64,000 nt of DNA, from positions 32,001-96,000 of IMG/VR virus record IMGVR_UViG_3300036784_000146. One strand, 5' to 3'. The DNA comes from a virus (taxonomy: Duplodnaviria; Caudoviricetes). The position numbers and the translations under genes are program-made. Positions 9,403 through 34,226 of this stretch are shown one piece after another; positions within the stretch are counted from its first letter, which is position 1; each line of letters begins with the position of its first letter. The notes beneath the pieces were generated by a model. That model made no database searches and was not told the DNA's origin. It saw only the letters and a list, made by a program, of their open reading frames with translations.

Positions 9403-11367
9403 ATGTCCGGTGGTTGTTTTGAAGTTTTGGCCGCATCGGAGGACGAGCAGAAGCTCGCCCAACAGCAAGCAGGTGACAGGCTTGCCGCCGCCGTCTATGA
9501 CGTGCGCCAGGAGTTTGGTGACTTCCTGTTCAAGGCCGCCAACATCCAGGAGTTCCGCACCCGGGTGGCACTGGTCAAGGACGACATGATGAAAGTCGTC
9601 GATCGCCACCTTCCGCCGGTGTCCGGCGTGATGGGCCGCATCGCGGTGCGCCGGGGCTCGATCCTGGAACGCCAGTTCAAGGCCTTCAAGAAGGGCGCCC
9701 CGTTCGCCGACTATGACAACTTCGCCGACTGCACTTCCAAGAACAGCGACAAGGACAACCCCGACGCCTACTGCGGGGAGATCAAGCACCGTACCGAGGA
9801 CAAGACAAGCGCCCGGCGGCTGGAAGCGACCCACAGCATCGTCGCCGACGACCCGCACTTGGGCTGGTTCGCGGTCGCCGACGCCACCTCCGGCGCCGGT
9901 GAGTACGTGAACGACATGGAGGGCCAGCTGTCCGGCGGGTCGGCGATGCCTCCCTCTCCTCTCACGTCAGGTGATCCCACCGGCGGCATGCTGGGCGACA
10001 CGGTGGTCCCAGGCAACATCCCAGGCAATCCCGGGATCGAGGGGGACAAGCCCACGATGCCCGGCGGCCTGAAGAGCTGGGGCCGTCGACGGCACTGGGC
10101 CACCGGCGAGGGCGGTGCGTTGTCCACTGACGAGACCTATCACCCTGAGTCCGGCGCGCTGATCCCTGAGGGCGACTGGCACGGCTTCCAGGACAGTGTC
10201 GACCAGGGTGCGGAGTCCAAGGTCGACGACGCGTTCGCCTCCGGCGAGCACGACAAGCACTACGACGGCGACCCGTCGAACACCGACTTCGTCAGCGGCC
10301 ACGAGGCGGCCTGGGTCGGCCCAGACCAGCACAGCTACGTGGGCAAGCCGAAGGGTCAAGATGCTGAAGACTGGGGAAACTGGGAAGAGCACCTGAAGTC
10401 CCGAAGTGCCGATCCTCGCAATCGCGAACACCCTTTGGTGCAAGACGCCAGGGACTCTCACGACCGGGCCATTGGGGCCCGGCGACGTCAAGCGGTGGAC
10501 GACGACAACAACGGCATCTACAACGTCATGCAGGGGCAGGGCTTCGGTCCCGAGCACGAGACCGGTGGGTTCGACGAAGCGTTCCCCTCCAAGATGGGCG
10601 CTCTGACTCTGCGCTACCTGTCGTTTTGCCATCGCAACAACCTGGCGCCGACGCTGGCCAGCCTGGAACGCCACGGCAAGAGGCTTGATCCTGGCGAGTA
10701 CTTAGCGCTCGCCAACGGGCTGGACAAGCTGGCCCGGCTGCCTCGGTCCGAGAAGGTCAAGGTGGCCCGGCTGGTGGACTGGACGCTGCGCCAGGCCGAG
10801 ACCTACCACGGCGAGGGCGACGTCGAGGACAAGTCGGGTCCTTTCGCTGGTCCGCACGGCTCCTTCCCGGTCGGCACCGAGAGCGACCTGAGTGGCGCCA
10901 AGGACGTGTGCAATATGCCTTCGGTGCACGGCAAGCACCCGGGCACGTGCGACCGCATCGAGCACATGCAGAAACCGGCTGCCCGACGGCGTCGAGCTGC
11001 ACCGGACTATCTGATGAAGGCCAAGGACGCGCTGGAAGGCCTGCTCAATCAGAAGGCCGAGGAGTTCCAGACTGGCGTGGCCCCGCTGCAGCAGGCGCTG
11101 CAGGTGGTCCAGCAGTCTCAGGCCATCGAGCAGGCCAACAACCCGCTTAGTGTCCAGCCCCCGGCGGGCACCGTAAACGTCTTGCCCGATCCTCCACAGG
11201 GTATGCCCGGCGCTCCGGCGGCTGGCGGCGGCGCTCCGGCGGACCAGAACGCTCCCCCTCCGGCAGCCGACGCAGCTGGTCTGTCAGGGATGCCTCCTGA
11301 CCCCACCCAGCAGATGGCGGCGAGCCGGAGGCGTGGTGGTCACCCAAAAGGCCGGGTCCCCGCGTAG
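9403..11367 (+). CDS. large low-complexity head-region protein (short form of a frameshifted gene)
   Basis: Long ORF, likely ATG at 9403; modular blocks separated by Arg-rich x-Ala motifs. Confidence 0.75.
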   Translation: MSGGCFEVLAASEDEQKLAQQQAGDRLAAAVYDVRQEFGDFLFKAANIQEFRTRVALVKDDMMKVVDRHLPPVSGVMGRIAVRRGSILERQFKAFKKGAPFADYDNFADCTSKNSDKDNPDAYCGEIKHRTEDKTSARRLEATHSIVADDPHLGWFAVADATSGAGEYVNDMEGQLSGGSAMPPSPLTSGDPTGGMLGDTVVPGNIPGNPGIEGDKPTMPGGLKSWGRRRHWATGEGGALSTDETYHPESGALIPEGDWHGFQDSVDQGAESKVDDAFASGEHDKHYDGDPSNTDFVSGHEAAWVGPDQHSYVGKPKGQDAEDWGNWEEHLKSRSADPRNREHPLVQDARDSHDRAIGARRRQAVDDDNNGIYNVMQGQGFGPEHETGGFDEAFPSKMGALTLRYLSFCHRNNLAPTLASLERHGKRLDPGEYLALANGLDKLARLPRSEKVKVARLVDWTLRQAETYHGEGDVEDKSGPFAGPHGSFPVGTESDLSGAKDVCNMPSVHGKHPGTCDRIEHMQKPAARRRRAAPDYLMKAKDALEGLLNQKAEEFQTGVAPLQQALQVVQQSQAIEQANNPLSVQPPAGTVNVLPDPPQGMPGAPAAGGGAPADQNAPPPAADAAGLSGMPPDPTQQMAASRRRGGHPKGRVPA

Positions 11368-11372
11368 GGGAC
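11343..11372 (+). other. -1 programmed ribosomal frameshift signal
   Basis: C CCA AAA heptamer in register with the zero frame, 6-nt spacer, then a GTCCCC-GCGTA-GGGGAC hairpin. Confidence 0.7.
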
Positions 11373-12077
11373 GTCGTCAAGGACTACCAGAGCTGGCTGA
11401 ACCGGCGCCCGGACAACCGGGGCGGTTCGGATCTCGAAGAGTTCGCCGTCGAGCATCCCATCGGTGACCGTGCCAAGCGCACCCTGCAGGAGCAGATGTA
11501 CGGCCAGCCGTCGCAGACCACGGCGGCCTACCAGGCGGCCTGCAAGGTATTCGGCAAGCAGGCCGTCGACGCCAGTCGTCGCGGCCGCACCGCGTCTCGC
11601 AAGCAGGCCTGGATGGGCTGGGGCCCTGCCCAGCTCGACCATCACCCCCGGGTGGCCGGATGGGACTGGGATCCGCACCTTGAGGCCTACACGGCCAGGA
11701 CACCCGGCCGGTTCGCCTGCTCGTGCGGCAATCAGATGGACATGCCCGGCCATCACGAGTGCAAGTGCGGGCGGCTGTACAACGGCTACGTGATCGGTAC
11801 CGGCGGATCCAACCACGAGGCCAGCGCCGAGAAGTATCTGGTGCGTGAGATCACCGTGCGCCCCGACGTCATCGTGGCCAACAAACAAGCGGCGCCGTCC
11901 GGCTACTACGGCAGCCCCGCTTACGATCCCGACGACCCCGACGCCGACTTCCCGTCAGACCACCACCCGTCCGTCGGCCGTCAGCCAGCAACCCCGGACG
12001 ACTGGGCGCACCGCAACGAGAAGAACGATTGGACGTCTCATCCGTTGCCCCGGCGTAAGAGGCGCCAGCCAGCTTGA
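11343..12077 (+). CDS. -1 frame extension of the 9403 gene (Zn-finger-like CxC..CxC domain)
   Basis: Frame is open and coding-like from 11343 (PKRPGPRVGDVVKDYQSWLN...), ~50 codons before the first ATG at 11496; contains FACSCG...HECKCG. Confidence 0.65.
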   Translation, partial: PKRPGPRVGDVVKDYQSWLNRRPDNRGGSDLEEFAVEHPIGDRAKRTLQEQMYGQPSQTTAAYQAACKVFGKQAVDASRRGRTASRKQAWMGWGPAQLDHHPRVAGWDWDPHLEAYTARTPGRFACSCGNQMDMPGHHECKCGRLYNGYVIGTGGSNHEASAEKYLVREITVRPDVIVANKQAAPSGYYGSPAYDPDDPDADFPSDHHPSVGRQPATPDDWAHRNEKNDWTSHPLPRRKRRQPA

Positions 12078-12107
12078 CTTCCTCCCAAGGCCGAGGCCGA
12101 GGGATTC

Positions 12108-12372: not shown

Positions 12373-12732
12373 ATGATTGGCACGGTGTGCCAAGGCTGCA
12401 AGCAGCTCGCCGAGATCGCCCACACCGATAGCCTCGGCCTCGGCTACTGCGCTCGGTGCGCCAAGGACATCCCAATCCAAAGCGAGACACTGGGTTTGGA
12501 GTACCTGATAGCCAACCCCCCGTTCTTCCCCGGCGATCGAGTAGAGTGCCGGACCGGCGGAGAGATTTTCGACGGAGTCGGAACCGTCCAGGAGATGAGT
12601 TTCGATTTCGAGCACGGGGGAACTTTGATCTATCCTGCCTTCCGCGTGACCATCGACGAACCTGCCAACGAGCACAGTCCGGTCGAAGGCTGGTGGACCG
12701 AGGTCTGCTTGAAGAAGGTGGGTAAGCCATGA
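12373..12732 (+). CDS. hypothetical protein with N-terminal CxxC...CxxC
   Basis: CQGC and CARC pairs; stop overlaps the portal start. Confidence 0.6.
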   Translation: MIGTVCQGCKQLAEIAHTDSLGLGYCARCAKDIPIQSETLGLEYLIANPPFFPGDRVECRTGGEIFDGVGTVQEMSFDFEHGGTLIYPAFRVTIDEPANEHSPVEGWWTEVCLKKVGKP

Positions 12733-15305
12733 CGGCGCCGGGCGGGCGGTTCTGGACCGGCAACCCCGATGCCGAGATGCGCCGTCTGCGGGCGGCCGGG
12801 GCCACGCTCCCCAACTCCGCGCCGAGGGCCCGGCTGGAAGCCAAACGCTTCGGCGATCAGATACGCAGCGGCTCCCTGGTGGACAACACCAACCGGATGA
12901 TGGGTGCCGACTTCCGGCGCCGCCGGGCCTCAGGCCTGCGTACCGGTGCCAACGTCCAGATGGCGATGCCCAAGTTCCGCACCCCGCTGGGCTCCCTGGA
13001 AGACAAGAACGTCCCGTTCAACGTCGAGGACCGCAAGGAGCTGCAGGAATGCCGCCGGTGGGCGCGGGCCTTCTATATCACCCACGACCTGGTCCCGCTG
13101 CTGATCGACATCTACGCGCGCTTCCCGCTGGTTGGCTTGGAGTTCAAGAGCACCGACCCGCTGATCGAGAAGTTCTACACCCAGATGTTCCTCAACGACC
13201 TGGACTACGAGAACTTCCTGCCCGACAGCCTGGGCCGCGAGTACTACGTCGCCGGTGAGGTCACCACGCTGGCTCATTTCAACGAGTCGCTGGGCATCTG
13301 GTCGTCGGAGGAGGTCCTCAACCCCGACTTCGTGCGGGTGTCCAAGGGCCTGTTCGTCGAGGAGGAACGTGTCCAGCTGATGGTCAAGGACCTCGTCGAC
13401 GGCCTACGCGACGGGCCGCAGGGGATGGGCCCCGACGAGGAGACCCGCAGCGAGCGCGAGGAGCGCCTCTACGAGTACCGCATGCTGGTGCAGAACTACC
13501 CCGAGATCATCCGCGCCGCCCAGATGGAAGACGGCCTGGACATCAGCCCGGCCAAGTGGAGCCGCATCGTCAACAAGAGCGCCCCGTGGCATGAGTACGG
13601 CACGCCGCCGCTGTTGCGCAGCTTCCGCACCCTGATGATGGAGGAGTCCCTCAACGCTGCTCAGGACGCCGTGGCGGACCGTTTGTACTCCCCGATGATC
13701 GTGGCCACCCTGGGCCTGGAAAACATGGGCGACGGGCTGCCCTGGATCCCGATGCAGTCCGACCTCGACGACCTGCGCGACGACATGCAGAACGCGTTCA
13801 TGGCCGACTTCAAGCTCGTCTGCCACCACATGGGCCTCAACGTGGAGAACGTCTTCGGCCGCGAGTCGGTCCCCCGATTCGATCAGGACTACGAGCGCAT
13901 CGACCTCAAGCTGATGCAGGCCTGGGGCATCGGCTCGGCACTGATCATGGGCGGCACCGGCGCGGCCGGTACCTACGCCAGCTCGGCACTGAACCGCGAG
14001 GTGTGCGAGCTGCTGATGAAGAGCTACCAGAAGAAGGTCATCCGCCACATCGTGAAGCGGATGGAAGTCATTGCCGAGGCCCAGCAGCACTACGCCTACG
14101 AGAAGAAGGGCGGCTACCGGCGGCCCCTCTACAAGGAGGTCGTGCAGTTCAACGAGGAGACCGGCGAGGAAGAGATCGTCCGCGTTCCGCAGCTGCTGAT
14201 TCCCAAGGTTGAGTTCGCCTCGCTCAACTTGCGCGACGAGACCCAAGAGCGTTCGTTCATGATGGAACTCAAGCAGGCCGGGGTGCCGATCAGCGACAAG
14301 AGCTTGGCGATCAACATCCCGATCGATTTCGAGCAAGAGCTGCCTCGCGGCGCCGACGAGACGGTCGACAAGCTGGTGGCCCAGGCCGAGGCGATGGGCA
14401 AGGCCCAGTCGATTATCGACCACAAGGACCTGCCGTACCCCGCCGAGCTGGCCCAGTACCTGACTCAGACCCTGATCCTGCGCCAGCAGCTGGCCCAGAC
14501 CAAGATGATGGAGGGCCAGGAGGAGATGCAGGAGACCGCCCAGCAGCAGCAGACTCCCGCCGGTGCGATGGGTGCACTGCCCGGCGTCCCGCCAGCTCCC
14601 CCGCCGCAGCCTGAGGGCGGCGAAGGCGAGGATGGCCAGTTGCCGCCTCCGGGCCCGATGCCCGTCCCGATGCTGCCCGGCGACGGCGGTCCGCCCATGG
14701 GCCCCGGTGGTCCGATGCCCATGCCGCCCCAGATGGCCTCTCCGGAGATGCAGACCGAGATGGGGCTGGTGGCCGCCAAGGGGCAGAAGCGCACGCCCTT
14801 CCAGGTCAATGCCCCACATGCCGGTGGCCCCGGAATCCTGCCGCCCGACATGGAGTTCGGCAACGAGAACGAGTTCGGAGGCGGACAGCCTTCCGAGGTC
14901 GTCGAGCCCCCGCGCAACCGCACTCGTCCCGAGGAGAGCGACGAGATGCGGGCCAACTCCCCGCGCAAGGCCACCCGGGTGGGCCGTAGCGGGATCCGCA
15001 AGAAGGCCGAGTTCGAGATGGACCCCAGCTCCTACGGCCACCGCAACCGGGTCAGCGAGAGCGCGGTGGAGAAGGCCGTCCGGCGCCGGGAGGCCCAGGC
15101 CAACCCGCCCCGGGTCGACGAGCTGATCCAGGACCCCAAGTTCTACGCCCTTACCGGCATCGGCGGTTACCAGGCCCAGATCCAAGGCGACTTCCCGCAC
15201 ATCATGGCCGGTGACGACGACGACAGCACCAAGGAGTCGATCCAGATTCTTGAGGACGCGTTACTGCAGTACGAGCGGCAAACAGGAGTGAGGCCGATAT
15301 GGTGA
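12729..15305 (+). CDS. portal protein
   Basis: 858 aa; LIDIYARFP, GREYYVAGE, EEVLNPD, GTPPLLRSFRTL..EE.L..AQ.A.A.R and Y.S..LN segments resemble large-myovirus portals; position ahead of protease and capsid. Confidence 0.8.
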   Translation: MTAPGGRFWTGNPDAEMRRLRAAGATLPNSAPRARLEAKRFGDQIRSGSLVDNTNRMMGADFRRRRASGLRTGANVQMAMPKFRTPLGSLEDKNVPFNVEDRKELQECRRWARAFYITHDLVPLLIDIYARFPLVGLEFKSTDPLIEKFYTQMFLNDLDYENFLPDSLGREYYVAGEVTTLAHFNESLGIWSSEEVLNPDFVRVSKGLFVEEERVQLMVKDLVDGLRDGPQGMGPDEETRSEREERLYEYRMLVQNYPEIIRAAQMEDGLDISPAKWSRIVNKSAPWHEYGTPPLLRSFRTLMMEESLNAAQDAVADRLYSPMIVATLGLENMGDGLPWIPMQSDLDDLRDDMQNAFMADFKLVCHHMGLNVENVFGRESVPRFDQDYERIDLKLMQAWGIGSALIMGGTGAAGTYASSALNREVCELLMKSYQKKVIRHIVKRMEVIAEAQQHYAYEKKGGYRRPLYKEVVQFNEETGEEEIVRVPQLLIPKVEFASLNLRDETQERSFMMELKQAGVPISDKSLAINIPIDFEQELPRGADETVDKLVAQAEAMGKAQSIIDHKDLPYPAELAQYLTQTLILRQQLAQTKMMEGQEEMQETAQQQQTPAGAMGALPGVPPAPPPQPEGGEGEDGQLPPPGPMPVPMLPGDGGPPMGPGGPMPMPPQMASPEMQTEMGLVAAKGQKRTPFQVNAPHAGGPGILPPDMEFGNENEFGGGQPSEVVEPPRNRTRPEESDEMRANSPRKATRVGRSGIRKKAEFEMDPSSYGHRNRVSESAVEKAVRRREAQANPPRVDELIQDPKFYALTGIGGYQAQIQGDFPHIMAGDDDDSTKESIQILEDALLQYERQTGVRPIW

Positions 15306-15805
15306 TGGGCAGGTTGACCAACATCGTGCACGCCACCCTGGACATGGGCGAGTTGATAGGCTTCCTTATCCGGGGTCCGGGGCTCTCTCCCTCCTTCAAC
15401 GGGGAGCAGGCGTTGGTTGGGGGTGATCCCGAGCCGAACACCAACGGCCACGAGTTACCGGCGCCCCCCGTTGTTCCGCAGCCGATCGAGCAATGGGGGT
15501 TGCGGTTGCCGAACGGCAACATCGTCTGGGAGAACTGCCTCTATCAAGGGCTGCCGATTCGGGAGCCGGACCAGCGCCAGGTCTTGGTAAACGTCCTGCG
15601 CCGTACGGCGGCCGACCTCGATTTTGACGAGGGCACCTTCCTGGGCCACTATGGCTGGGCCCGGCGCTTCGGCATCCCGGCGGTGCAATGGGGGGATATC
15701 ACCGTGCACCCCTTGACAATTGAAAACAGTGGTTCCGACACGCCCAGGGCGAACGGTATGTTAGAGGGTCCCGGCGTGTCGGAAATTGGTTCACCGAATA
15801 GGTAA
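15299..15805 (+). CDS. hypothetical protein (168 aa)
   Basis: Overlaps the portal stop; RBS present. Confidence 0.6.
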   Translation: MVMGRLTNIVHATLDMGELIGFLIRGPGLSPSFNGEQALVGGDPEPNTNGHELPAPPVVPQPIEQWGLRLPNGNIVWENCLYQGLPIREPDQRQVLVNVLRRTAADLDFDEGTFLGHYGWARRFGIPAVQWGDITVHPLTIENSGSDTPRANGMLEGPGVSEIGSPNR

Positions 15806-15879
15806 ATTTTCAGGTAAGGTGTGACGGTATCCCATGGCAACGATTAGGTGGGGAACGTCGCCCGAACAAGGGAAAGTGA

Positions 15880-16179
15880 TTGTCTGACATGAAGTCTGAC
15901 TCCGAGAATGCTGTCGATGTCTACTATCTGACGCTGCCAGTGGCTAGTTCGGACCAAGCCAGAAGTTTGGCCAACTACCTGAACGCCCATGGGGTGGAAG
16001 CGGTTCCGGACGGCAACGACGGCGTCACGTGCCCAGTGGCCAAGGACGAGACGGTTAGCGACATCCGCCAGTTGCAGAAGTCGTGGTACAAATTCTGGGA
16101 ACACTCCGATGCCGAAGTTTTCGGACTGTCCGTCTACGTCAAGCCTGCCGGGGTAACCTGCAGCCATGAGTCTCCCTGA
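15880..16179 (+). CDS. hypothetical protein (~99 aa)
   Basis: ORF overlapping the next gene start. Confidence 0.55.
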   Translation: MSDMKSDSENAVDVYYLTLPVASSDQARSLANYLNAHGVEAVPDGNDGVTCPVAKDETVSDIRQLQKSWYKFWEHSDAEVFGLSVYVKPAGVTCSHESP

Positions 16180-16807
16180 CATCGAAGCCAATATCGAGGC
16201 TGCCATGGATTGGGCTCGATCGGTCAACGGCCAGCCCTACTTCAAGACCGCCGACGCCGAAGAGGCCAAGCAGTCCGGCGGCATGATCGCGCTTTACCCA
16301 CGCACCGACTTCGCTCAGATGTTGGCCGTGCCCGGCGGGGAGCCCGAAGACGACCTGCACCTGACCTTGGTCTTCCTGGGCGATGACGTCAGCACTCTGG
16401 ACCCCGCGAACCTAGGCGCGATCGTCGGCCGGGTCGCCGATTCCTACACCGAGATCACCGCGCGCGTCTTCGGTCACGCCGTGCTCAACCCCGACGGCGC
16501 CGAGGGCCGTGACCCCTGTGGTGTTTACCTGGTAGGTCATTCCCCCGAACTGAGCCAGATCCATGATGACGTGCGCGAGGCCGCCGAGATGGGTGCTCAG
16601 ATCCCCGAGCAGCACGATCCCTGGCTGCCTCACATCACCGCCGGATACGCCTCTCAGATGGGCGAAAGCACCCAGGTACGGGAGTACACCGGAGAGGTGA
16701 TTTTCGATCGTCTGGGGCTCGCTGTGGCCGGGGAAACGCAGTTCTATCCCTTCCATGGTGCCTCGATTGCGGCCGCATATACCTCTCTTGCGCACTGGCC
16801 CCTGTAG
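16166..16807 (+). CDS. 2H phosphoesterase (2'-5' RNA ligase/Acb1-like fold)
   Basis: Two HxT motifs, LHLTLVFLG and WLPHITAGY. Confidence 0.85.
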   Translation: MSLPDIEANIEAAMDWARSVNGQPYFKTADAEEAKQSGGMIALYPRTDFAQMLAVPGGEPEDDLHLTLVFLGDDVSTLDPANLGAIVGRVADSYTEITARVFGHAVLNPDGAEGRDPCGVYLVGHSPELSQIHDDVREAAEMGAQIPEQHDPWLPHITAGYASQMGESTQVREYTGEVIFDRLGLAVAGETQFYPFHGASIAAAYTSLAHWPL

Positions 16808-16842: not shown

Positions 16843-16847
16843 CTGCG

Positions 16848-25999: not shown

Positions 26000-27520
26000 G
26001 TGGACATGGGGTCTCTGATGGTCCTCGCTGACGCGATCACCCTACTGGCCTACGACATCCAGTCCCCGGCTCCCGGTGCTCCGCTGACGACCATCAGGGG
26101 GCCCAAGGGCCCCTCTCTGGATCCGGCCAACGACCCCATGGGTCACCTGGACAAACGGCCCTACAACTACGACACGATGGTCTCTAACCTAGAGAGCCAC
26201 TACCACGGCGCGAGCGACAACGAGCGCAGGCAGGGCAGGTTCTGGTACAAGGGCGCCAACGATCTGTTCGGCAAGTTCGCCAAGAACAACGACATCAGCC
26301 CCGAGCGTGCGGTCGCCTACGGCGCGGCGTTCTCGCCGCTGACCGACTGGGGCGACAACGTCCACCACGCTCAGCAGTTCATGCTGGGCTACCGGCCAGG
26401 GGACCCTAATTTCAGTGAGCACGACTGGCAGGTTGCTCATATCCATCCCGGGGCGTTGGACGCCTTCCGGCAGCAGACTGGACGCGATCCGTCGCACTCG
26501 GACGAGGATCTGCACCAGCTGGCCGACTTGCACGCTGACGCGTTCTCACGTGGGCCCAAGAAGAACGCGGTCAACGATCTCTCCAACCCTGCGGCCCGGG
26601 CCGACTGGATGGCCAACATCCAGCACAAGGGCATGGATGCCGTCCTAGAAGACCACGAGCGCCAGAAGGAGGCTTGGCGTAAGGACGTCAACAGGAGCGG
26701 CCCCTACAACCCGTCGATGGCGATGCGCCCCTCGGGCATCAAGACGCTCGGCGGCAACATCCAGAAGGCCAAGGACCTCTACCACGCACCCGAGGACGTC
26801 GCGCAGATGTTCGGGGTGCTGGGCGGCCCGAAGATCAGCCACTTCACCGACAACATCCTCGACGACACCCCGATCAATGAGGAGGGGTATTATCAGCACC
26901 CCAACGGCGACTGGACTCAGAACAAAGACCTGGGCGGCACGATCGACAGCCATCACATCCGGGCTTCGAGCATGCCCCACGGGGGCTGGGAGCGTAAGGC
27001 CTATGCCTCCAAGAACCCCAACACCGCCCATGAGTACGACGTGTTCAACCGTGGCCTCTACGACGCCACCAAGCGCATCAATGACGCCGAACCCGATGCC
27101 ACCAAGCACATCACCCCCAAGCAGCTACAGGCCATCGTGTGGCTCAAACACAAGAACGACAAGGACTACTTCGAGCGCCAGCGCAACCCCCAGACCGGCC
27201 AGCTGATCAACCACGAGAGCGAGCTGGGCGGCGCCGGGCGTCCTGAGGACTGGCAGTATGCCGAGAAGAGCTACAAGTCCAAGGGCAAGGGCTTGGGCAA
27301 GGGACGCAGCCGTGCGGCCGCGCTGGACGAGGCCGACTTCGCCGACATGCCGCCGCTGTGGCGCAAGATGTTCATGAGTCGGCGCCCCGCCGAATGGACC
27401 GAGCTGCTTTCCGCGTGGGTGAACCACCACGCGCCGGAATCTGTGGACCCGGATCCCACGCGTGAGGCTCGCACCATCAACGACGCGGTGGTCTTGACGG
27501 CGGTGGCGGCTCTTGTCTGA
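26000..27520 (+). CDS. DUF7178-like helical phage protein (possible DNA-acting enzyme)
   Basis: GRFWY...AAFSP..DW.DN, GPKISHF.DNI, TIDSH and TPKQLQAIVW motifs. Confidence 0.55.
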   Translation: MDMGSLMVLADAITLLAYDIQSPAPGAPLTTIRGPKGPSLDPANDPMGHLDKRPYNYDTMVSNLESHYHGASDNERRQGRFWYKGANDLFGKFAKNNDISPERAVAYGAAFSPLTDWGDNVHHAQQFMLGYRPGDPNFSEHDWQVAHIHPGALDAFRQQTGRDPSHSDEDLHQLADLHADAFSRGPKKNAVNDLSNPAARADWMANIQHKGMDAVLEDHERQKEAWRKDVNRSGPYNPSMAMRPSGIKTLGGNIQKAKDLYHAPEDVAQMFGVLGGPKISHFTDNILDDTPINEEGYYQHPNGDWTQNKDLGGTIDSHHIRASSMPHGGWERKAYASKNPNTAHEYDVFNRGLYDATKRINDAEPDATKHITPKQLQAIVWLKHKNDKDYFERQRNPQTGQLINHESELGGAGRPEDWQYAEKSYKSKGKGLGKGRSRAAALDEADFADMPPLWRKMFMSRRPAEWTELLSAWVNHHAPESVDPDPTREARTINDAVVLTAVAALV

Positions 27521-27637
27521 GGATTCGCTTCGGGTTTACGCTCTGGCCGTGTTGGCCCCCCTAATTGCAGCATGGTTATTCAAGAAGCGGGGTAACCTAA
27601 ACGGTGGTTCTGACACCAAACCAGGAGGCACCGCGCC

Positions 27638-28639
27638 GTGAGCGAGATAGCTCAAGACCTCGAACGCATCCTCGCCGACCTCGTTCGACGGGAGCTGGGA
27701 GCCCTTGGCGATCAGCTCGTCTCCGCCATCGGCAACATCAATTCCAAATTCAATGATTTCGACACCAAGCTAGGAGCAATCGTGACAACTCTCGACGAAT
27801 TGACCACATTGACGAACCAGGTGCAGACCTTGGTACAGGGCTTCTCTCAGGCCGGTACGGATGTAGCTGCGGCGGAGGCCCAGATCGCGGACCTGCAGGG
27901 CCAGTTGGCCACCGCGCAGACCCAGATCGCCACCGATGCCACCACCGCGCAGGCCGACGAGGCGCAGGTCGCCACGCTGACCACCGCGATAAGCCAGCTG
28001 CAGGACCAGCTCACCGCACTGCAGAATGTCCTCAACCCGCCCGCGCCGACCCCCACTCCGACTCCCACTCCGACGCCTACCCCGACACCCACTCCGACCC
28101 CGACGCCTACTCCAACCCCGGCGGCTTCCATCACGGTCACCAGCGTGTCTCCGGCCACGGGCAGCGACCAGGGTGGCGACACCTTGACGGTTGCAGGCTC
28201 GGGCTTCGCCAACGCGTCGGGCGTGAACTTCGTTGACTCGACCGGCGCCGCCACTCCGGCCGCCAGCTGGTCGCTGTTGGACGACGGCAATCTGCAGGCG
28301 GTCACCCCGGCGCTGGCCGACGGCACCTACGACGTGGTTGTGACGGCCACTGACGGCACCAGCTCGGCAACGAGCGCGGCCGACCAGTTCAGCACCTCGG
28401 CTCCGGCCCCTGCGCCCACTCCGACACCCACGCCTACACCCACCCCGGCTCCTAGCGGCACGCTGAGCCCGGTGGACCCTAACGCCGCTCCGGTTCCGGC
28501 CGGGACTCTGGACCCGACCACCCTGGTGGTCGAGGTGCCTGCGGGTACCACTCCGGTAGTCCTTCCGGCTAACGCCGTAGCTGTGGCCGCCGGTACCCTG
28601 CCCGCCGACGCGACAGTAACGCCTGTACAGCAGTCGTAA
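27638..28639 (+). CDS. coiled-coil / Pro-Thr linker / IPT-TIG (Ig-like) domain protein
   Basis: Heptad coiled coil, (PT)n linkers, ITVTSVSPATGS..GG.TLTV.GSGF...V.F IPT signature. Confidence 0.75.
   Translation: MSEIAQDLERILADLVRRELGALGDQLVSAIGNINSKFNDFDTKLGAIVTTLDELTTLTNQVQTLVQGFSQAGTDVAAAEAQIADLQGQLATAQTQIATDATTAQADEAQVATLTTAISQLQDQLTALQNVLNPPAPTPTPTPTPTPTPTPTPTPTPTPTPAASITVTSVSPATGSDQGGDTLTVAGSGFANASGVNFVDSTGAATPAASWSLLDDGNLQAVTPALADGTYDVVVTATDGTSSATSAADQFSTSAPAPAPTPTPTPTPTPAPSGTLSPVDPNAAPVPAGTLDPTTLVVEVPAGTTPVVLPANAVAVAAGTLPADATVTPVQQS
28046..28120 (+). repeat. 6-bp tandem repeat encoding (Pro-Thr)n
   Basis: CCNACN repeats; a second shorter tract lies near 28410-28447. Confidence 0.85.
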
Positions 28640-28685
28640 AACTAAAACCGATCCGGTAAACGCAAGAGTGACCCGGATGGTAACG

Positions 28686-28733
28686 AAGAAACCAGGCTGG
28701 TAAACAAAATGCTTTTTCCGGCCTGGTTTCTTT
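28686..28733 (+). terminator. intrinsic (possibly bidirectional) terminator
   Basis: AAGAAACCAGGCTGG...CCGGCCTGGTTTCTTT inverted repeat. Confidence 0.65.
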
Positions 28734-28809
28734 CGCGTTCATGTGCTATGTGGCTACTATGGGCTAACCTTTAGGGGAAAGCTAGAGAACAACTAGCAGA
28801 GAGAGCCCG

Positions 28810-29001
28810 ATGAAGAACTATCTGGTGACGCTGATCAGTCGAGACAGCGGCGATCTGCAGCGCATCGTGGTGCAGTCAGAGTGCCCTTGCGGCATGCAAG
28901 AGTTCGTCGACGGTCTGAGCGACCTTCATGTCACGAGCCCTGTGGTCGTTGATATCAACGAGACAGCTGCCAGTCATCTGCCTCAGGTAGATCCGACCTA
29001 A
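28810..29001 (+). CDS. hypothetical protein (63 aa)
   Basis: Small ORF with a TACTAT -10-like hexamer upstream at 28755. Confidence 0.5.
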   Translation: MKNYLVTLISRDSGDLQRIVVQSECPCGMQEFVDGLSDLHVTSPVVVDINETAASHLPQVDPT

Positions 29002-29083
29002 ACCCCGGCGCCGCACTGGCCCTGCGGCAAGTCCTACGGCCCGCCCCGATCTCCCGGGGGCGGGCTGTAGTGCGTCTGGGACC

Positions 29084-29122
29084 TGTGAACCTGCACCCGA
29101 GCATCCTTAAAGGGTAGGAGGA
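29084..29122 (+). promoter_or_regulatory. bipartite TGT-N22-AAAGGG motif, copy 4
   Basis: CCTGTG (TGT at 29084), AAAGGGTAGGAGGA from 29109. Confidence 0.55.
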
Positions 29123-29178
29123 CGCTGCGCAGCGGGAAGAGAACCCTGGCAGGACTCCCTGACCCCGAGAGGATCATC

Positions 29179-30015
29179 GTGAACGCACCGACCGACACCC
29201 CCACTGACAAAGTCGCCGCCGACGAGAAGATCGCCAACCTGGAATCTCAGCTCGCCGAGGCCATGAGCTTCATCAACCAGATGAAAGCAAGCGGTGTCGG
29301 GGCTCCCGCCGCCGCGCCGGATGTGGTCATGGCGGCGCCTGAGAAGCCGCGTACCGTGATGAACCTCCGCGAGTTGCGCCAATACGAGGGCACGCTCTAC
29401 GTCAAACACAACGACCCTCAGCGCCAATTCAGCTGCCACCAGGCGTTGGGCGAGCACCGCGTCGACTTCGATCTCGGTCCGGCCGGGCGCGGCGACGACG
29501 TCGCCATCCTGCCCAAGCTGGCCTTGGAGATCCGGGGCATCCAGCGTGCTTGGAAGCGCAAGACGATCACTATCTCCAAAGAGGAGGACATGGACGAAGA
29601 GATCGATCTGATGATGGCGACCCACGGCAGCTACGCCGAGTCGGTGCTGGCCGAGCTGCAGGTCCAGGTCACTCCGTCAAACAACGAGCGCGACATCCTC
29701 ACCCGGCCCTGCCTGCGGTGTGGTCGGTGGGGTCGCGACCAGTATGGCCAGTCAACGCCGGTGGTTGAGGGCGGCAGCTCGATGATGACCTACGCCGACT
29801 ACAAGGGTGGGCGTCCGCCCCTGTGCACCGCCCACCAACACGAGGAGCACCTGTGGGTGGCCTCGCTGATCACCAACCCGTCGACCGGCCAGCAAGACTG
29901 GGCCTACAACCCGATGGTCGTTGGGGAGACTCAGCCCGGGATACCCCCACAGCAGCAACAGCAGCCCTATACAGGGGCGATCACGCCGCAGCATATGCAG
30001 CAGTACTACCAGTAA
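29179..30015 (+). CDS. hypothetical protein with C-terminal CxxC..CxxH
   Basis: 278 aa ORF with RBS GAGG; PCLRCG...PLCTAH. Confidence 0.7.
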   Translation: MNAPTDTPTDKVAADEKIANLESQLAEAMSFINQMKASGVGAPAAAPDVVMAAPEKPRTVMNLRELRQYEGTLYVKHNDPQRQFSCHQALGEHRVDFDLGPAGRGDDVAILPKLALEIRGIQRAWKRKTITISKEEDMDEEIDLMMATHGSYAESVLAELQVQVTPSNNERDILTRPCLRCGRWGRDQYGQSTPVVEGGSSMMTYADYKGGRPPLCTAHQHEEHLWVASLITNPSTGQQDWAYNPMVVGETQPGIPPQQQQQPYTGAITPQHMQQYYQ

Positions 30016-30027
30016 AGGAAGGTAGCC

Positions 30028-30318
30028 ATGACTAGTCCTCAACAGCCGGGGATCTTGTTTACCGGCAACTACCGCGTCGTAGCGGGCAATCCCGGTGTTC
30101 CGGGTGCCCCGAGCGTTCTCGATGAGTTGGCCAATCCGCCCGCCACAGCGGTGCAGGCCCAGACGGACGGCAAGGCCGCCCAGGCTGCGCTCGGCGTTGT
30201 CAAGACGGCGGCTTTCCAGGCAGCCACTAAGGTCGCCTCGTCCCATTACGACAAGATCAAGAACTTCTACGACGGGGCCGGTGTCGTCGGCATCGCCAAC
30301 AACAACCCGCTGTCGTAG
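30028..30318 (+). CDS. small virion-associated hypothetical protein
   Basis: RBS AAGGAAGG; tight operon. Confidence 0.65.
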   Translation: MTSPQQPGILFTGNYRVVAGNPGVPGAPSVLDELANPPATAVQAQTDGKAAQAALGVVKTAAFQAATKVASSHYDKIKNFYDGAGVVGIANNNPLS

Positions 30319-30401
30319 GGGGAGAAGTAACCGGCGCGTCAAGGCTGACACCAGGGCCGACGCGCCGGTCAGATTCCCAGTTTAGTACCCGGAGGTAGGA
30401 A

Positions 30402-30563
30402 ATGACTCAGCCAGCACCGCCAACGCCATATATGACTCGGGCAGCCATCAACAACCTGGCCAACTCCAACGAAGACCCGATTAAGGACTTCGCCGACTCG
30501 GTCGGCGTCGTCAACTCGCCAGCCAGCGGCTTGAGTGCGCCGCCGCCTACCAAGGAGTTCTAA
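30402..30563 (+). CDS. 53 aa hypothetical protein
   Basis: GGAGG RBS; MTQPAPPTPY...PIKDFADSVGVV; below the ORF-track cutoff. Confidence 0.55.
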   Translation: MTQPAPPTPYMTRAAINNLANSNEDPIKDFADSVGVVNSPASGLSAPPPTKEF

Positions 30564-30566
30564 CCA

Positions 30567-31544
30567 GTGGGATCGGGATCGACCGCCTATCCCGGCGGCG
30601 ACGATACGTTCACCATCCCCTCCGATCCCGAGAACACACCCACTTCATCGGCAGGGGACGGTACGAGAGACCTGCCGCAATCGATCGCCGACGAAGGTGC
30701 GGCGATCATGGCTCTGGAAGCCAATGCGGCCCAGAAGCCCCACACCCACTCCGGTGGCTCCGACGGCACGGTGATCCTGAGGCAGTCCTCCACGCACGCC
30801 AACGCCGACACCGATACGTCCAACACGTCGATTCACCACACCATCGGGCCCGGTGCACACCAGGCGTCGGCCGGGAACCATACGCACAACTACAACTCCC
30901 TGACCGGCGACCCGCTGATCATTTGTACGTCAGTGAATCGTCCGCCCAGCCCGTTCGTCGGCCAGATGATCTTCGAGACCGACACCGGTGTCTGGCGCCA
31001 GTGGTATGCCTACTCCACACCGAGCCCCGTCTGGCAAATCCTGCCGATGGGCAGAGTCCCGAACTTCCGCGCCGAGGCCCAGACCGTCCAGGCCGTGCTG
31101 CGCGAGGAGAGCCACGCGCTCTCACTCACCACGATCATTCAAGACTTCTTCTGGGGGATCTTCGGTATCGCCCAGTTCATGGTGACCGACGTCTCCGCCA
31201 CCGATATCGTCATCCCCGAGCCCGGCACCTACCACGTGCACGCCTCGATCTGCTGGGACCCGTCCAACACCTACCAGGACCAGTCCTCGGTGCAGGTCAC
31301 CGTCAACGGCGCCGACGTCGGGCGCAAGAATTGGGAGTGGGTACGCGGGCCGGTCAACCCCTACTCGGGCACGGCAGGCTTCTCGCAGACCAACGAGATC
31401 GAGTTCTACTACCCGTTCCAAGCCGGGGATGTGTTGCGGGTGATCGCCGAGCACAACGCCCAGGAGACCTCGTTCCTGTGGTACAACCCCAACCCGCCGG
31501 TGCGTCAGGTCTGCTTCGTCGAGTGCATGTTCCATAGCCCGTAA
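30567..31544 (+). CDS. collar/whisker-type fibre protein with C1q-like C-terminus
   Basis: HxH repeats, TS..RP..PFVGQMIFETDTG fibre motif, PGTYHVHASICW...AGDVLRV beta-sandwich. Confidence 0.55.
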   Translation: MGSGSTAYPGGDDTFTIPSDPENTPTSSAGDGTRDLPQSIADEGAAIMALEANAAQKPHTHSGGSDGTVILRQSSTHANADTDTSNTSIHHTIGPGAHQASAGNHTHNYNSLTGDPLIICTSVNRPPSPFVGQMIFETDTGVWRQWYAYSTPSPVWQILPMGRVPNFRAEAQTVQAVLREESHALSLTTIIQDFFWGIFGIAQFMVTDVSATDIVIPEPGTYHVHASICWDPSNTYQDQSSVQVTVNGADVGRKNWEWVRGPVNPYSGTAGFSQTNEIEFYYPFQAGDVLRVIAEHNAQETSFLWYNPNPPVRQVCFVECMFHSP

Positions 31545-31552
31545 GGAGGATC

Positions 31553-32542
31553 GTGGTTGCCTATCCGTCGGGCATGGCCGTCTGGTCCCCGAAGATCACC
31601 AACTCGGCGTTGGCCCGAAAGTTCGTCTCGCTCAACGGGTATGGCTACGTCGCGATCACCATCTATAACGGCCAGACTGCCGTCGACCCCGACCCGGGGA
31701 CGCTGGCCCTGCAGGTCTGGTTCGACGACGTCACCAATCCCGATGCGACACTGAGCGATCCGCGCGGCACTCAGGTGATCAACGTGACGGCCAGCGAGAT
31801 CACTCGCGCCGATACTGGCATGTACCACTACGCCATTGGACCCGAGTACACCGGCAATATCGGGGTGCTCACCGCCGAGTGGTCCTATCAGGTTGCCGGT
31901 CAGGCCATCACCTACAGCGACTACCTGCAGATCCTCGAACAGATGCCGTTGTACGAGACGCTCACCGACGCCGAGAAAGGCCTTGTCGAGCAAGTGAATT
32001 GGATGCTCGGGGACCTCTTCGATTCCACCACCGGCGGCCCGCACCTGATGGACGAGTTCCAGACGCACTTCAATTCGGAGCGCATCGCCGAGCTGGCCCA
32101 GATCGCCACCACCCGGTTCAACTACATCGGCTTCCCGGTGACCGACTACGCCTTCGGGGGTACCAGCTCGGGCCAGGGTGGCTTCACCGGCCTGTTGGTG
32201 ATCGGCACTTACCTGGAAGTGCTGCGCCACCTTATCCGCAGCTACGTCGAGATCCCGGTGTGGCAGAACATGAACGTCACCTACGAGGACCGCCGCGAGT
32301 ACATGGCCCGCTGGAAGCAGGTCTTCGACGACGAGTGGGCCGACTACCAGACGATGGTCAAGATGGCCAAGCGCTCGCTGCTGCAGCTGGGTCGGGGCTC
32401 GCTGCTGCTCGGCGGTGGCTACTTCGGCATGAACGGCAGCCGGGGCCTGTTCCTGTTCAGCCCCTACTCGGCTCTCGCTCGGAGCTTCCGCTTCTATCCC
32501 GCCGCCCCGGCGATCAGCTTCCCGTCGACGAGGATCCCGTGA
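31553..32542 (+). CDS. head-tail adaptor/neck protein
   Basis: Synteny; DRREYMARW and LLLGGG motifs typical of large-myovirus adaptors. Confidence 0.55.
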   Translation: MVAYPSGMAVWSPKITNSALARKFVSLNGYGYVAITIYNGQTAVDPDPGTLALQVWFDDVTNPDATLSDPRGTQVINVTASEITRADTGMYHYAIGPEYTGNIGVLTAEWSYQVAGQAITYSDYLQILEQMPLYETLTDAEKGLVEQVNWMLGDLFDSTTGGPHLMDEFQTHFNSERIAELAQIATTRFNYIGFPVTDYAFGGTSSGQGGFTGLLVIGTYLEVLRHLIRSYVEIPVWQNMNVTYEDRREYMARWKQVFDDEWADYQTMVKMAKRSLLQLGRGSLLLGGGYFGMNGSRGLFLFSPYSALARSFRFYPAAPAISFPSTRIP

Positions 32543-33261
32543 TGCGCATCCACAGGCAGGCCGAGACTTTTGCCTACCGGCTGGCGACACCCGCCATGCC
32601 GGGAGCTTCGCTAAACGTCACCGACAGCGCTCCCCAGAGAAACAGACCCGTCAAGCTGGTGTACGGCGGCGCATTCAACCCGCCGCACGAGGGGCACGTA
32701 GGCGCGCTGCGAGACGCGCACAATGCGCTCGCCGGTGCTGGGTACCAAGTAGACGGCACCGTCGTTACGCCTACCGCAGACAAGCTGTTGGCGAAGAAGC
32801 AGATGGATCCGCAGTATCAACTGGGCCTGCAGGCTCGCGCCAACGTGAGCCGGGCCGCATTCCCACCCGAGATAAACGGTTCTCCCGTGGAGGTTCACAC
32901 CGGGCCGTCCGAGGAGGTCGAGCACTCCGCAGGGAAGCCACGGCGCACCGATCTCGCGAACTGGGTGCAGCGGCAATACCCGAATCACACCATCGTCAAC
33001 GTCACCGGAGAAGACGCCACCGTGCCCGGTGCCCCTGAGGGCGGTCCGCATCCGTCGCTGTACTCCGGCGAGGTCGGCTCCAATCATGCGGGCTACAACT
33101 ATCTCACGCTGCCGCGCGATCCCGTAGAGAGCATGAGTTCAAGCAAGATTCGCGCTGCCGAAGCTGCAGGCCAGCCGCTCCCTGGAATGACGCCAGGGTC
33201 GGAGCGTGCCTATCGCGAAGAGCTGGCAAAGCATCGAGCGAACTTCGCCGGGATTCCGTAA
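32542..33261 (+). CDS. NadD/NMNAT-like HxGH nucleotidyltransferase
   Basis: YGGAFNPPHEGH and MSSSKIR motifs; true start ATG 32542 overlaps the upstream stop. Confidence 0.8.
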   Translation: MRIHRQAETFAYRLATPAMPGASLNVTDSAPQRNRPVKLVYGGAFNPPHEGHVGALRDAHNALAGAGYQVDGTVVTPTADKLLAKKQMDPQYQLGLQARANVSRAAFPPEINGSPVEVHTGPSEEVEHSAGKPRRTDLANWVQRQYPNHTIVNVTGEDATVPGAPEGGPHPSLYSGEVGSNHAGYNYLTLPRDPVESMSSSKIRAAEAAGQPLPGMTPGSERAYREELAKHRANFAGIP

Positions 33262-34226
33262 TGCAGGTCCTTCGGCAGCGCGAGCAGTTCGCCTACCGGC
33301 TGGCGGCGTCGACCAAGCTCTATCGAGGGCTCAATATCGACACGCGCCAGCCTGGGCTTGAGAAGGTGCATTCCATTCTGAATCCACCAGGCACACAGCC
33401 CCTAGAACACCACCCGGGTTGGGATCACCCCGAGGTGGGCACGCACTTACTGAACTGGCTGTCCGACAACAGGAGCGGTCTGGGCAGGCATTGGAGTGAA
33501 GACCCCGCTCAAGCCGAGACGTTCGCCAGGTGGCCCGACGAGACCACCGGACGAGGTGGCAATCTGCAGGCCGTCGTCGAGGGCGACTGGGGTGGGCAGG
33601 GAGCCGATCCCAACCGCACCAACACTCGCGAGTTCAACGACGCCGGAGAGCAGATCCGATCCTTCCCCTGGGAGAAGGAGCACACGCTGTCGCCGGGTGC
33701 CCACCTCAACGTCACCGGCCTGAAGATCCGGCCCTACGACGACGAGTACTGGAATGGCCCTAGCACGGGTGATGAGCCCATCGACGAGAACCACGAGGGG
33801 CCTTGGCATTCGGTGCTCGGTGCCTCGTCGTCGCGAACGGCCGCTGCTGCCGAGCCGTTCATGGTGCCGACCGAGCATTTGGCCCCTCATATCGTCTTCG
33901 ACCGGTCCACCATGATGGAGCAGAGCAAGCCCAACTTCCAGGAGCTGCTGGCGCACATCAAGAAGCACGGGATCCAAGATCCCGTCACCATGGAGACCGA
34001 CGGGCAAACGGGCACCTTGGCCGACGGCAACCACCGGTGGGCGGCCGCCAAGATCCTTGGCCTCCCTCACGTCCCCACTCGGTTCGTTCGAGAGAACACC
34101 AAGTTCTTGCAGCACATCGGTGCTCCGGAACTGCATCCGATGATCCGTCAGCACCTGGCGGCGCACCCGGAGGCCATTCAGGAGGACGTCGAGCGCCAGC
34201 CATCCTGGCAGCAGGGGGAACGATGA
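33261..34226 (+). CDS. ADP-ribosyltransferase-like domain fused to ParB/Srx N-terminal domain
   Basis: LYRG...G.HWS.D...A..FA...EKE (R-S-E-like), then IKKHGIQDPV...LADGNHRWAAAKILG (ParB-N). Confidence 0.65.
   Translation: MQVLRQREQFAYRLAASTKLYRGLNIDTRQPGLEKVHSILNPPGTQPLEHHPGWDHPEVGTHLLNWLSDNRSGLGRHWSEDPAQAETFARWPDETTGRGGNLQAVVEGDWGGQGADPNRTNTREFNDAGEQIRSFPWEKEHTLSPGAHLNVTGLKIRPYDDEYWNGPSTGDEPIDENHEGPWHSVLGASSSRTAAAAEPFMVPTEHLAPHIVFDRSTMMEQSKPNFQELLAHIKKHGIQDPVTMETDGQTGTLADGNHRWAAAKILGLPHVPTRFVRENTKFLQHIGAPELHPMIRQHLAAHPEAIQEDVERQPSWQQGER

Follow-up and report, generated by a model that had tools for sequence, protein, structure and literature searches.

A basic-x-alanine motif in head proteins and a short N-terminal leader on unrelated enzymes suggest T4-like capsid targeting and prohead processing in a relative of the Bxz1-like actinophages

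The subject of this paper is the head module of a tailed phage known from the IMG/VR virus record IMGVR_UViG_3300036784_000146 (143.6 kb, rated 96% complete). We analyzed bases 32001–96000 of this record, a stretch of 64,000 nucleotides (nt) with a GC content of 62–67% that is called here the window, and all coordinates are positions in it. Based on gene order and protein similarity, the virus groups with the Bxz1-like cluster C mycobacteriophages (such as ScottMcG), Phrappuccino, the Gordonia phages Skog and Stormageddon, and Rhodococcus phage E3. A short motif, a basic residue followed two positions later by Ala ([RKH]xA), is in excess in its head proteins and keeps its position across relatives, and a family of short N-terminal leaders is shared by otherwise unrelated enzymes, whose modules are fused or split in relatives at such motifs. 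The reading that we consider probable is that of a T4-like capsid-targeting tag combined with processing by a prohead protease that follows a new, Ala-type cut rule. A wider reading, which we regard as possible and put forward only tentatively, is that in the Bxz1-like actinophages and their uncultured relatives a portable leader of 15–24 residues and an Ala-specific, assemblin-like head protease serve to bring exchangeable enzyme modules into the capsid and to release them, so that they are delivered together with the DNA, among them nicotinamide adenine dinucleotide (NAD)-related enzymes, ADP-ribosyltransferase (ART)-like and Zeta-type toxins and cell-wall hydrolases.

The motif had been noticed in an earlier, sequence-only reading of this DNA, which took it for a protease cut site punctuating head proteins and bracketing enzyme domains. 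All the strings quoted there are present in the translations, but in one of them, RRHWAT of the open reading frame (ORF) 9379/9403–11367, the basic residue and the Ala are three positions apart and not two. In the three big head proteins 79 [RKH]xA motifs were counted against 42.7 expected from per-protein shuffles (z 6.4), and RR[TQHVR]A was found 7 times against 0.4 expected. Shuffling a whole protein takes no account of local composition, and as a further control the same pair of residues was counted at other spacings. By this control R(i)-A(i+2) occurs 46 times against 14–33 at the other spacings, and the four head-internal proteins together contain 86 [R/K/H]-x-Ala against 47.3 (ratio 1.82, Poisson p 3e-7). 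The ratio is 1.40 for shell proteins, 1.37 for the genes of 26000–34226 (p 0.04), 1.20 for all other genes and 1.02, meaning no excess, for the tail module, and the enrichment in head over tail proteins that had been named as a check is indeed found. When all 400 residue pairs were scanned without bias at four spacings (1600 combinations), the top rank in the head-internal proteins went to R..A at spacing 2 (49 vs 26), with K..A at spacing 2 within the top twelve, and the same scan gave nothing comparable in the rest of the genome. When residues are numbered outwards from the presumed cut, Arg is enriched 2.7x at P4, Thr, Gln and Val are enriched at P2 and Ala, Ser and Gly at P1', while Pro is depleted at P2 and P1'. 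Motifs of the Glu type, as cut in T4, phiKZ and SPN3US, are not in excess in the head-internal proteins ([LI]xE 18 vs 16.6, [SAG]xE 53 vs 53.7, AxE 22 vs 20.9), and neither are basic-x-Gly and basic-x-Ser.

The predicted protease is the N-terminal domain of a fusion protein of 1120 amino acids (aa), which is given here with its principal sites:

20921–24283, plus strand: protease-scaffold fusion, 1120 aa (phrog_18299, head maturation protease, E 1e-18; phrog_2774; PF25735).
21689–21700, plus strand: KRVA, aa 257–260, directly C-terminal to the protease domain; basic-x-Ala in 8/16 homologues.
22190–22201, plus strand: RKKA, aa 424–427, before the W/Y-G-E-x-E-A-P that opens the scaffold; [RK]-x-A-[WY]-G-E in 12/16 homologues.
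22868–22879, plus strand: RRTA, aa 650–653, scaffold site 1, in a predicted coil region.
23111–23122, plus strand: RRTA, aa 731–734, scaffold site 2 (RRTADDSGH); basic-x-Ala-D/E in 14/16 homologues.
23366–23377, plus strand: RRTA, aa 816–819, scaffold site 3, at the end of a predicted helix (788–819); kept in at least 10 homologues.
23717–23728, plus strand: RRRA, aa 933–936, scaffold site 4; [RK]-[RK]-x-A-[DEN] in 16/16 homologues.

The protein starts with a peptide that contains K52-I-A54 and R60-K-A62, followed by the protease domain (about aa 72–256), an L5-gp82-like domain (PF25735, aa 276–410) and an acidic/basic scaffold (aa 428–1120). By tblastn the protease domain matches gp19 of Bacillus phage G, its nearest cultured outgroup (E 6e-20, 36% identity), as well as proteins that are annotated as head maturation proteases in phages of Tunturiibacter, Dickeya and Erwinia (E 4e-12 to 2e-8). 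H126, S177/S179 and H205, in the order His-Ser-His, are invariant among 9–10 diverged homologues and are the putative catalytic residues. The domain matched no Pfam protease family, and comparison of the domain and of a 9-sequence profile with solved structures gave only zinc-finger noise from a Cys/His insert. The AlphaFold2 (AF2) model of the domain has a predicted local distance difference test score (pLDDT) of 67; no Foldseek match fell below E 0.04, yet herpesvirus proteases and T4 gp21 recur among the weak matches, with those of varicella-zoster virus (VZV), Kaposi's sarcoma-associated herpesvirus and human cytomegalovirus among the top ones (Foldseek probability 0.5–0.75 over ~90 aa). 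The AF2 model of the full 1120-aa fusion is poor (pLDDT 39.9) and was used solely for coarse disorder and helix ends.

We aligned 16 protease-scaffold homologues from six cultured phages and ten IMG/VR contigs (42–75% identity) and found basic-x-Ala kept in position at aa 260, 427, 536, 723, 734, 819, 936, 1016 and 1101. KRVA, at the end of the protease domain, is a candidate site for self-release of the protease. Since the gp82-like domain is present in some lineages and absent from others, it can be regarded as an inserted module, bracketed by the motifs at 260 and 427. More generally, many sites hold their position across 13–16 diverged relatives (Bxz1-like cluster C phages, Phrappuccino, Skog, E3 and IMG/VR contigs). 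The motif is real, specific to head proteins and positionally conserved. Several His-x-Ala examples quoted for it, and the RSRA site discussed below, are not conserved in homologues.

Two further observations were made on the fusion protein. The Cys/His insert (21485–21540, aa 189–205) has invariant C189, C192, C203 and H205 (C-S-x-C-G-N ... C-D-H-V-K-F-H-K-G) and looks in its sequence like a zinc ribbon or C2H2-type finger. The N-terminal 66 residues of the fusion protein (20924–21121, aa 2–67) weakly match positions 505–570 of the portal family phrog_2833 (E 5.5e-4).

Conserved sites are also found in the portal, the DUF7316 protein, the gp93-like family and the capsid protein; further proteins of the head module are given here:

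9379–11367, plus strand: gp85-like head-module protein, part 1, 662 aa (phrog_2922), with RRRQA and RRRRA sites; motif count 18 vs 10.3.
11496–12077, plus strand: gp85-like protein, part 2, in a different reading frame; a single ORF with part 1 in ScottMcG and Phrappuccino.
12729–15305, plus strand: portal protein (phrog_2833, E 0).
15299–15805, plus strand: DUF7316 protein (PF24000), with RRTA at aa 101–104 (nt 15599–15610) in 7/8 homologues.
16166–16807, plus strand: 2H phosphoesterase, LigT-like (PF13563, E 2e-7).
16848–20924, plus strand: giant head-module protein, 1358 aa (phrog_2940), with the strongest per-protein motif excess (31 vs 14.5, p 1e-4).
24896–25909, plus strand: major capsid protein (phrog_2522), with a candidate propeptide at aa 1–65.

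The order of the module is gp85-like protein (in two pieces), DUF7245, portal, DUF7316, 2H/LigT-like phosphoesterase, 1358-aa protein, 1120-aa protease-scaffold fusion, cement protein, major capsid protein and DUF7178 protein. In the portal, R-x-R-x-A-[S/A/N] at aa 63–67 (nt 12915–12929) is present in 9/13 homologues. The 1358-aa protein, in which the strings RHRAAG, HYAEE, RHAD, HFADD and HRTAG had been quoted, has an N-terminal site, RFA, near aa 43–45 (a site near aa 40 is found in 9/13 homologues) and a C-terminal one at aa 1318–1320 (FLHRTAGRTY), where all 13 of 13 homologues read FL-R/K-T/Q-A-G-R. RRRQAV and RRRAAP lie in the first gp85-like ORF. In the 2H protein FKTA occupies aa 26–29 and K27-T-A29 (nt 16244–16252) falls exactly where the homology of the family starts; [RKH]-x-A followed by DAEQAK is found in 11/12 homologues, and the peptides upstream of it are unrelated and of variable length. 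The capsid protein has the candidate sites R15-F-G17, R49-M-A51 and R63-L-G65, of which the second is kept as [RK]-[ML]-A at aa 49–51 in 15/17 homologues, and G-[RK]-x-[A/S] near aa 17–19 is conserved as well.

The idea that the cut falls after Ala finds support from outside, in the capsid protein of phage G. This protein has 282 aa and 31.2 kDa, and its mature form was shown by N-terminal sequencing to have 255 aa and 28.2 kDa (PMC5646251). From the genome record we computed that gp27 without its first 27 residues has 255 aa and 28.17 kDa; the published length and mass therefore place the cut after Ala27 (G-R-V-A-L-A↓Q-A-M, the arrow marking the bond). The proteases of T4, phiKZ, 201phi2-1 and SPN3US cut after Glu (PMC5694885), and because the phage G capsid protein is cut after Ala27, the protease clade of gp19 and the window domain would cut after Ala. 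The sheath and capsid proteins of phage G are closest to those of Bxz1, Myrna, E3 and Phrappuccino (PMC8570332, PMC5646251), and R63-L64-G65↓Q66 of the window capsid protein, within an invariant RLGQSMIGPIQ, aligns with the phage G cut A27↓Q28. This alignment, together with the conserved sites upstream of G65, suggests by analogy a propeptide of about 65 aa that may be cut several times, as in SPN3US (PMC10052503). In gp19 itself K-x-A sites flank the protease domain, and RQA, KVA and KIA follow it. The head module of phage G shows the spacing-2 excess too (40 vs 26.2, p 0.007; 31 vs 16.6, p 0.001, for the portal, gp15, gp19, gp20 and gp21), and since phage G is AT-rich, GC content does not explain the excess.

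The second line of evidence is the leader, which was met in the enzyme genes of the window:

26000–27520, plus strand: DUF7178 protein, this copy without leader, with RSRA at aa 436–439 (nt 27305–27316).
32542–33261, plus strand: NadD-like nucleotidyltransferase, 239 aa (PF01467, E 5e-4 here, 1e-5 in the homologue of the relative G001).
33261–34226, plus strand: ART-like + ParB-N protein, 321 aa (ParB_N E 1.7e-4, below the curated cut-off).

The string YRLA, noted earlier ahead of the NadD-like and ART-like domains, lies at aa 12–15 of both proteins and closes an N-terminal leader of 15 residues, the leader reading MRIHRQAETFAYRLA in the NadD-like protein (nt 32542–32586) and MQVLRQREQFAYRLA in the ART-like + ParB-N protein (nt 33261–33305). 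The start of gene 32542 overlaps the stop of 31553–32542, and gene 33261 overlaps the stop of the gene before it. A 460-aa ORF at 31879–33261 was rejected as a gene; it is an Arg/Pro-rich, out-of-frame upstream extension of the real NadD-like gene that starts at 32542. The leader of this first type (type 1, MRIxRQAExFAYRLA) is found on five proteins of this genome. Three of them are encoded upstream of the window, namely a protein of 94 aa, an ART-like protein of 202 aa and a Zeta-toxin kinase (PF06414, E 4e-17). The five copies differ by synonymous changes and the DNA upstream of them is unrelated, which argues that selection acts on the leader peptide.

A second type, (M)-x-R-R-I-V/T-T-A-R-E-Q-x-x-M/L-L-x-P-W-x-x-x-A, was found on ScottMcG gp102 (DUF7178) and gp103, Skog gp164 (DUF7178), Phrappuccino gp57, three genes of the relative L014 (NlpC/P60-like, weak GNAT), the relative L018 and twelve further IMG/VR contigs, with a leader variant also in L025. 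Type-2 leaders lie nearly always 1–10 residues from the start codon and are followed by unrelated sequence. In total the same leader stands on NadD-like, Zeta_toxin, DUF7178, NlpC/P60-like, ParB-N-like and ART-like proteins, with more than 20 copies in relatives. It ends in YRLA, FRIA, KPA, RVA, W-R-E-A, W-R-T-A, V-T-A or I-E-A, and the similarity does not extend beyond this point. Ala is the last residue of nearly all leaders, P3 being Arg in the majority and Val, Ile or Leu in some; of the five copies in this genome, two have YRTG and YRIL at the end instead. The motif as it had been defined must be revised: Ala at P1 is constant (sometimes Gly or Ser) and P3 is mostly Arg or Lys, but P3 can also be Val, Ile, Leu or Ala. 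A search of 50,697 phage records with a 25-aa leader query returned 201, and 200 of the 201 are Mycobacterium phages, including Bxz1, Catera and Rizal; because the query is so short the individual E-values are weak, and it is the near-exclusive restriction to Mycobacterium phages that serves as evidence. An exact-pattern DNA scan found just two further contigs with the type-1 leader and more with the type-2 pattern. We also considered a twin-arginine export signal for RRIVTAREQ and rejected it, since the sequence after it is not hydrophobic but charged. In ScottMcG (L030, 69506) and Skog (L031, 101243) homologous genes start with M-P-I-x-R-Q-S-E-x-Y, like the type-1 leader, and continue with an acidic sequence of low complexity; this may be a third form of the leader.

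The enzymes that carry the leader are fused and split among relatives at such motifs. In G001, whose protease is ~68% identical to that of the window, the two overlapping window genes are one ORF of 818 aa, which starts with the leader and the NadD-like domain (79% identical); K-H-R-A↓S and Y-R-F-G↓S then precede an additional HExxH domain, G-R-V-A↓E precedes the ART-like domain (49% identical), and S-R-R-L-A↓M precedes a C-terminal domain that is different. In a 1112-aa protein of L018 three modules, each a leader plus its cargo, follow one another, the leaders standing at aa 1, 257 and 543; the second module is NlpC/P60-like (a conserved motif, read by eye) and the third carries DUF7178 (PF23802). 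Phrappuccino gp57, whose gene directly follows that of the capsid protein, combines a leader with an ART-like region, a leader-like element in its interior and a Zeta-toxin domain, and ScottMcG gp79 is ART-like + ParB-N with the linker K-M-A-R-A-A where the window reads S-R-T-A-A. That motifs precede or separate enzyme domains is true for FKTA, for both YRLA sites, where the leader is shared, and for SRTA, the linker at aa 191–194 (nt 33831–33842) of the ART-like + ParB-N protein, but not for RSRA after DUF7178, which has no counterpart in homologues; the DUF7178 homologues of ScottMcG, Skog and L018 carry the leader. The Zeta_toxin, 2H and DUF7178 assignments pass curated thresholds, the NadD-like one is borderline here and passes in G001, and the ART-like one is a lead that comes from weak matches. 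Overall, the earlier interpretation is upheld in part, by computation for the motif, the leader and the module fusions, and from outside for the cut after Ala, although several of its example sites are unconserved. As a side observation, aa ~236–420 of the G001 polyprotein (L027:994-3450, minus strand) form a metallopeptidase-like module with H-E-M-G-H (HExxH) that has no Pfam match.

The mechanism that we propose is as follows. The prohead protease, as the N-terminal domain of the 1120-aa fusion, would recognize P3-x-P1 and cut after P1, which would be Ala (occasionally Gly or Ser) with Arg or Lys usually at P3. It would free itself from its flanking peptides at KIA54 and KRVA260, and the inserted gp82-like domain would be released between KRVA260 and RKKA427. 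The disordered, highly charged scaffold may be cut at about ten sites into small peptides able to exit the shell, and the portal, the capsid protein (with its ~65-aa propeptide ending R-L-G↓Q) and the giant internal proteins would be trimmed. The leader of 15–24 residues ending in Ala would bring enzymes into the assembling core, where the protease would then remove it, and the polyproteins of relatives, with their serial leader-plus-enzyme modules, would be cut apart by the same protease. The freed cargo could then be ejected and delivered with the DNA, and might act in the host against its defences.

Several points weigh against this mechanism. The motif is loose and permissive, and conservation is lacking at some instances; its residues are only modestly better conserved than other basic and Ala residues, and its Ala is less conserved in the closest relatives (0.63 vs 0.82). 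Positions conserved in at least 60% of sequences number 12 at spacing 2, hardly more than the 9–10 at spacings 3 and 4, to which RRxA and RRRxA sites contribute as well. Several conserved sites (865, 897, 922 and 1025) fall within confident helices of the C-terminal scaffold domain in the model and are probably structural. The mapped phage G cut has Ala and not a basic residue at P3, and the window capsid site aligned with it has Gly at P1, while [RKH]xG shows no overall enrichment. In some 2H homologues the motif is preceded by just 5–7 residues, which is too little for a targeting peptide, and the leader could direct proteins elsewhere than to the capsid. The fold matches are weak and come from a low-confidence model (VIA-align: VZV protease Z 4.7 over 109 aa, T4 gp21 Z 4.3 over 124/165 aa), and in the literature searched no proteomic or N-terminal data were found for this phage or its Bxz1-like relatives (Bxz1, E3, Myrna).

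One alternative explanation is that the motif and the leader are real and selected but are neither cut sites nor capsid tags. In this case basic-x-Ala before acidic residues would be a scaffold contact or a matter of charge patterning, and the leader would bind a chaperone, the tail or the baseplate, or would regulate the enzymes, many of them toxin-like, until release. The sites inside confident scaffold helices fit such a role, the leader genes have not only head genes but also tail-fibre and baseplate-like genes around them, and NlpC/P60 and DUF7178 cargo would also suit tail-tip lysins. Yet the tail module has no motif excess (ratio 1.02), the motif stands where domains, and also the protease, come to an end, a site of the same kind is proven to be cut in the phage G capsid protein (PMC5646251), and nearly all leaders end in Ala at the point where similarity stops, so that we hold this explanation to be unlikely, if still worth weighing. 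Somewhat less likely again, in our view, is that the protease cuts basic-x-Ala only in scaffold and structural proteins, with the leader enzymes left unpackaged and the polyproteins being simple gene fusions. The excess is indeed concentrated in the four head-internal proteins and is just 1.37x in genes 26000–34226 (p 0.04), phage genes that lie side by side are commonly fused or split, and the ART assignment and the anti-defence role come from weak leads and inference. What this explanation does not account for is a leader of fixed architecture kept on unrelated proteins in at least 20 genomes (at the protein level), its recurrence at internal module starts in L018 and Phrappuccino gp57, and the HRA↓S, RFG↓S, RVA↓E and RRLA↓M at the G001 fusion junctions; T4 also offers a precedent in Alt and the internal proteins IPI-III. 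Chance, with Arg and Ala common in 65% GC DNA, might seem to suit a short motif that is mildly enriched (1.20x) even outside the head module, but this very improbable reading is rejected by the composition-keeping spacing control (p 3e-7), by the first rank in the unbiased scan, by the lack of excess in the tail module, by the excess in AT-rich phage G and by the sites kept in position in the alignments, and the same composition controls and phage G speak against the GC-rich background that the sequence-only reading had named as its own possible undoing.

To return to T4-like tagging and processing, the concept of such a tag is known from T4, with its capsid-targeting sequence, internal proteins and Alt. 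The likeness lies in a short N-terminal peptide (10–20 aa in T4) that is shared by unrelated proteins and ends at a protease motif, in the P3-x-P1 grammar, in a scaffold core degraded to peptides with trimming of portal-proximal and shell proteins, and in an ADP-ribosyltransferase-type enzyme among the cargo, Alt in T4 and ART-like here (PMC5694885, PMC9026906). The systems differ in that T4 gp21 recognizes (L/I)-x-Glu and the window (R/K or aliphatic)-x-Ala, in their unrelated leader sequences, and in that here the protease is fused to the scaffold and an inserted domain, the cargo occurs in multi-module polyproteins and the host belongs to the Actinobacteria, the system being known here from sequence. 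The Ala-type specificity, the fused protease-scaffold with an inserted cargo domain and the multi-module polyproteins are what stands out. In our literature search no paper was found on a cut motif or capsid tag of Bxz1-like phages.

In T4, phiKZ and SPN3US a P3-x-P1 motif, N-terminal propeptides, portal and capsid cuts, protease self-cleavage and multiply cut propeptides are all known (PMC10052503, PMC5694885). Among the giant phages, the prohead proteases of phiKZ (gp175), 201phi2-1 and SPN3US (gp245) act on propeptides of portal, capsid and ejection proteins with several cuts per propeptide; these proteases also cleave their own C-terminus, and the window domain is linked by tblastn to those of Erwinia and Dickeya jumbo phages (PMC10052503). 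They differ in cutting after Glu (S/A/G-x-E, A-x-E), whereas Glu-type motifs have no excess here. We know of no common short leader on the substrates of the phiKZ, 201phi2-1 and SPN3US proteases. Phage G, the nearest cultured outgroup for the capsid protein as well as for the protease domain, shares with the window a related protease (gp19) and capsid protein (gp27), the capsid cut after Ala27 and the basic-x-Ala excess (PMC5646251, PMC8570332). Its protease is however a separate 300-aa protein with no long scaffold fusion, and P3 at its mapped site is Ala. The herpesvirus assemblin (clan SH), synthesized as a protease-scaffold fusion that frees itself, cleaves (V/L/I)-x-A↓S after the Ala. By analogy we treat the window protease as one that works like assemblin, and do not place it in MEROPS family S21; no sequence similarity to assemblin was detected, P3 here is mostly basic and the fold match is weak (Z 4.7).

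If the proposed mechanism is true, it would give the cut rule for the head protease of a large and much-used group of mycobacteriophages, in which about 200 cultured cluster C phages carry the leader, and the mature boundaries of portal, capsid and internal proteins would become predictable for structural work. Among T4-type head proteases, the residue after which the cut falls would then have changed from Glu to Ala, which is also the one used by the herpesvirus assemblin. Like the tag of T4, a short tag may then bring proteins of choice into the capsid of a mycobacteriophage, which would be a tool for studies of early infection and of defence and counter-defence in Mycobacterium smegmatis. 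On the wider reading, this would be the first such tag system outside the T4-like phages and would offer a means of protein delivery into mycobacteria. The system can be tested directly in cultured Bxz1-like phages. As a speculation, the cargo (NadD-like, ART-like, Zeta kinase, 2H/Acb1-like and cell-wall hydrolases) may point to NAD and cyclic-nucleotide immunity and to passage of the cell wall as the first battles after injection.

Some minor observations concern the other genes. The gp85-like gene (9379–12077) is in two frames, the second running from about 11360/11496 to 12077, and could be a real split, a frameshift or programmed recoding; its E3 homologue, gp70, is annotated both as a two-piece joined pseudogene and as 'structural protein'. 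The 2H phosphoesterase has a sub-threshold match to Acb1, a protein that counters CBASS, an anti-phage system whose signals are cyclic oligonucleotides (PF23474, E 6e-4, 19.9 bits vs a cut-off of 27), and the place of its gene between those of the portal and the giant internal protein is kept in most relatives. LysM is carried by the ScottMcG and Phrappuccino homologues of the 1358-aa protein and was not detected by Pfam in the window protein (E up to 0.01). The latter has, at 18390–18480 (about aa 515–545), a conserved core, W-H-C-G-C-D-W-G-R-W-A-F-K-R-R ... F-C-S-H-A-Y-A, which in sequence resembles a SWIM-type C-x-C ... C-x-H zinc finger and has no Pfam match. On the 3' side of the DUF7178 gene follow a TIG-domain protein, baseplate-like genes, the NadD-like gene (32542–33261) and the ART-like + ParB-N gene (33261–34226). 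The protein encoded at 27638–28639 combines a coiled coil at its N-terminus with two long Pro-Thr repeats and a TIG/IPT domain; its homologues are found in L008 and L016 only, and it is probably a head/neck fibre or decoration protein.

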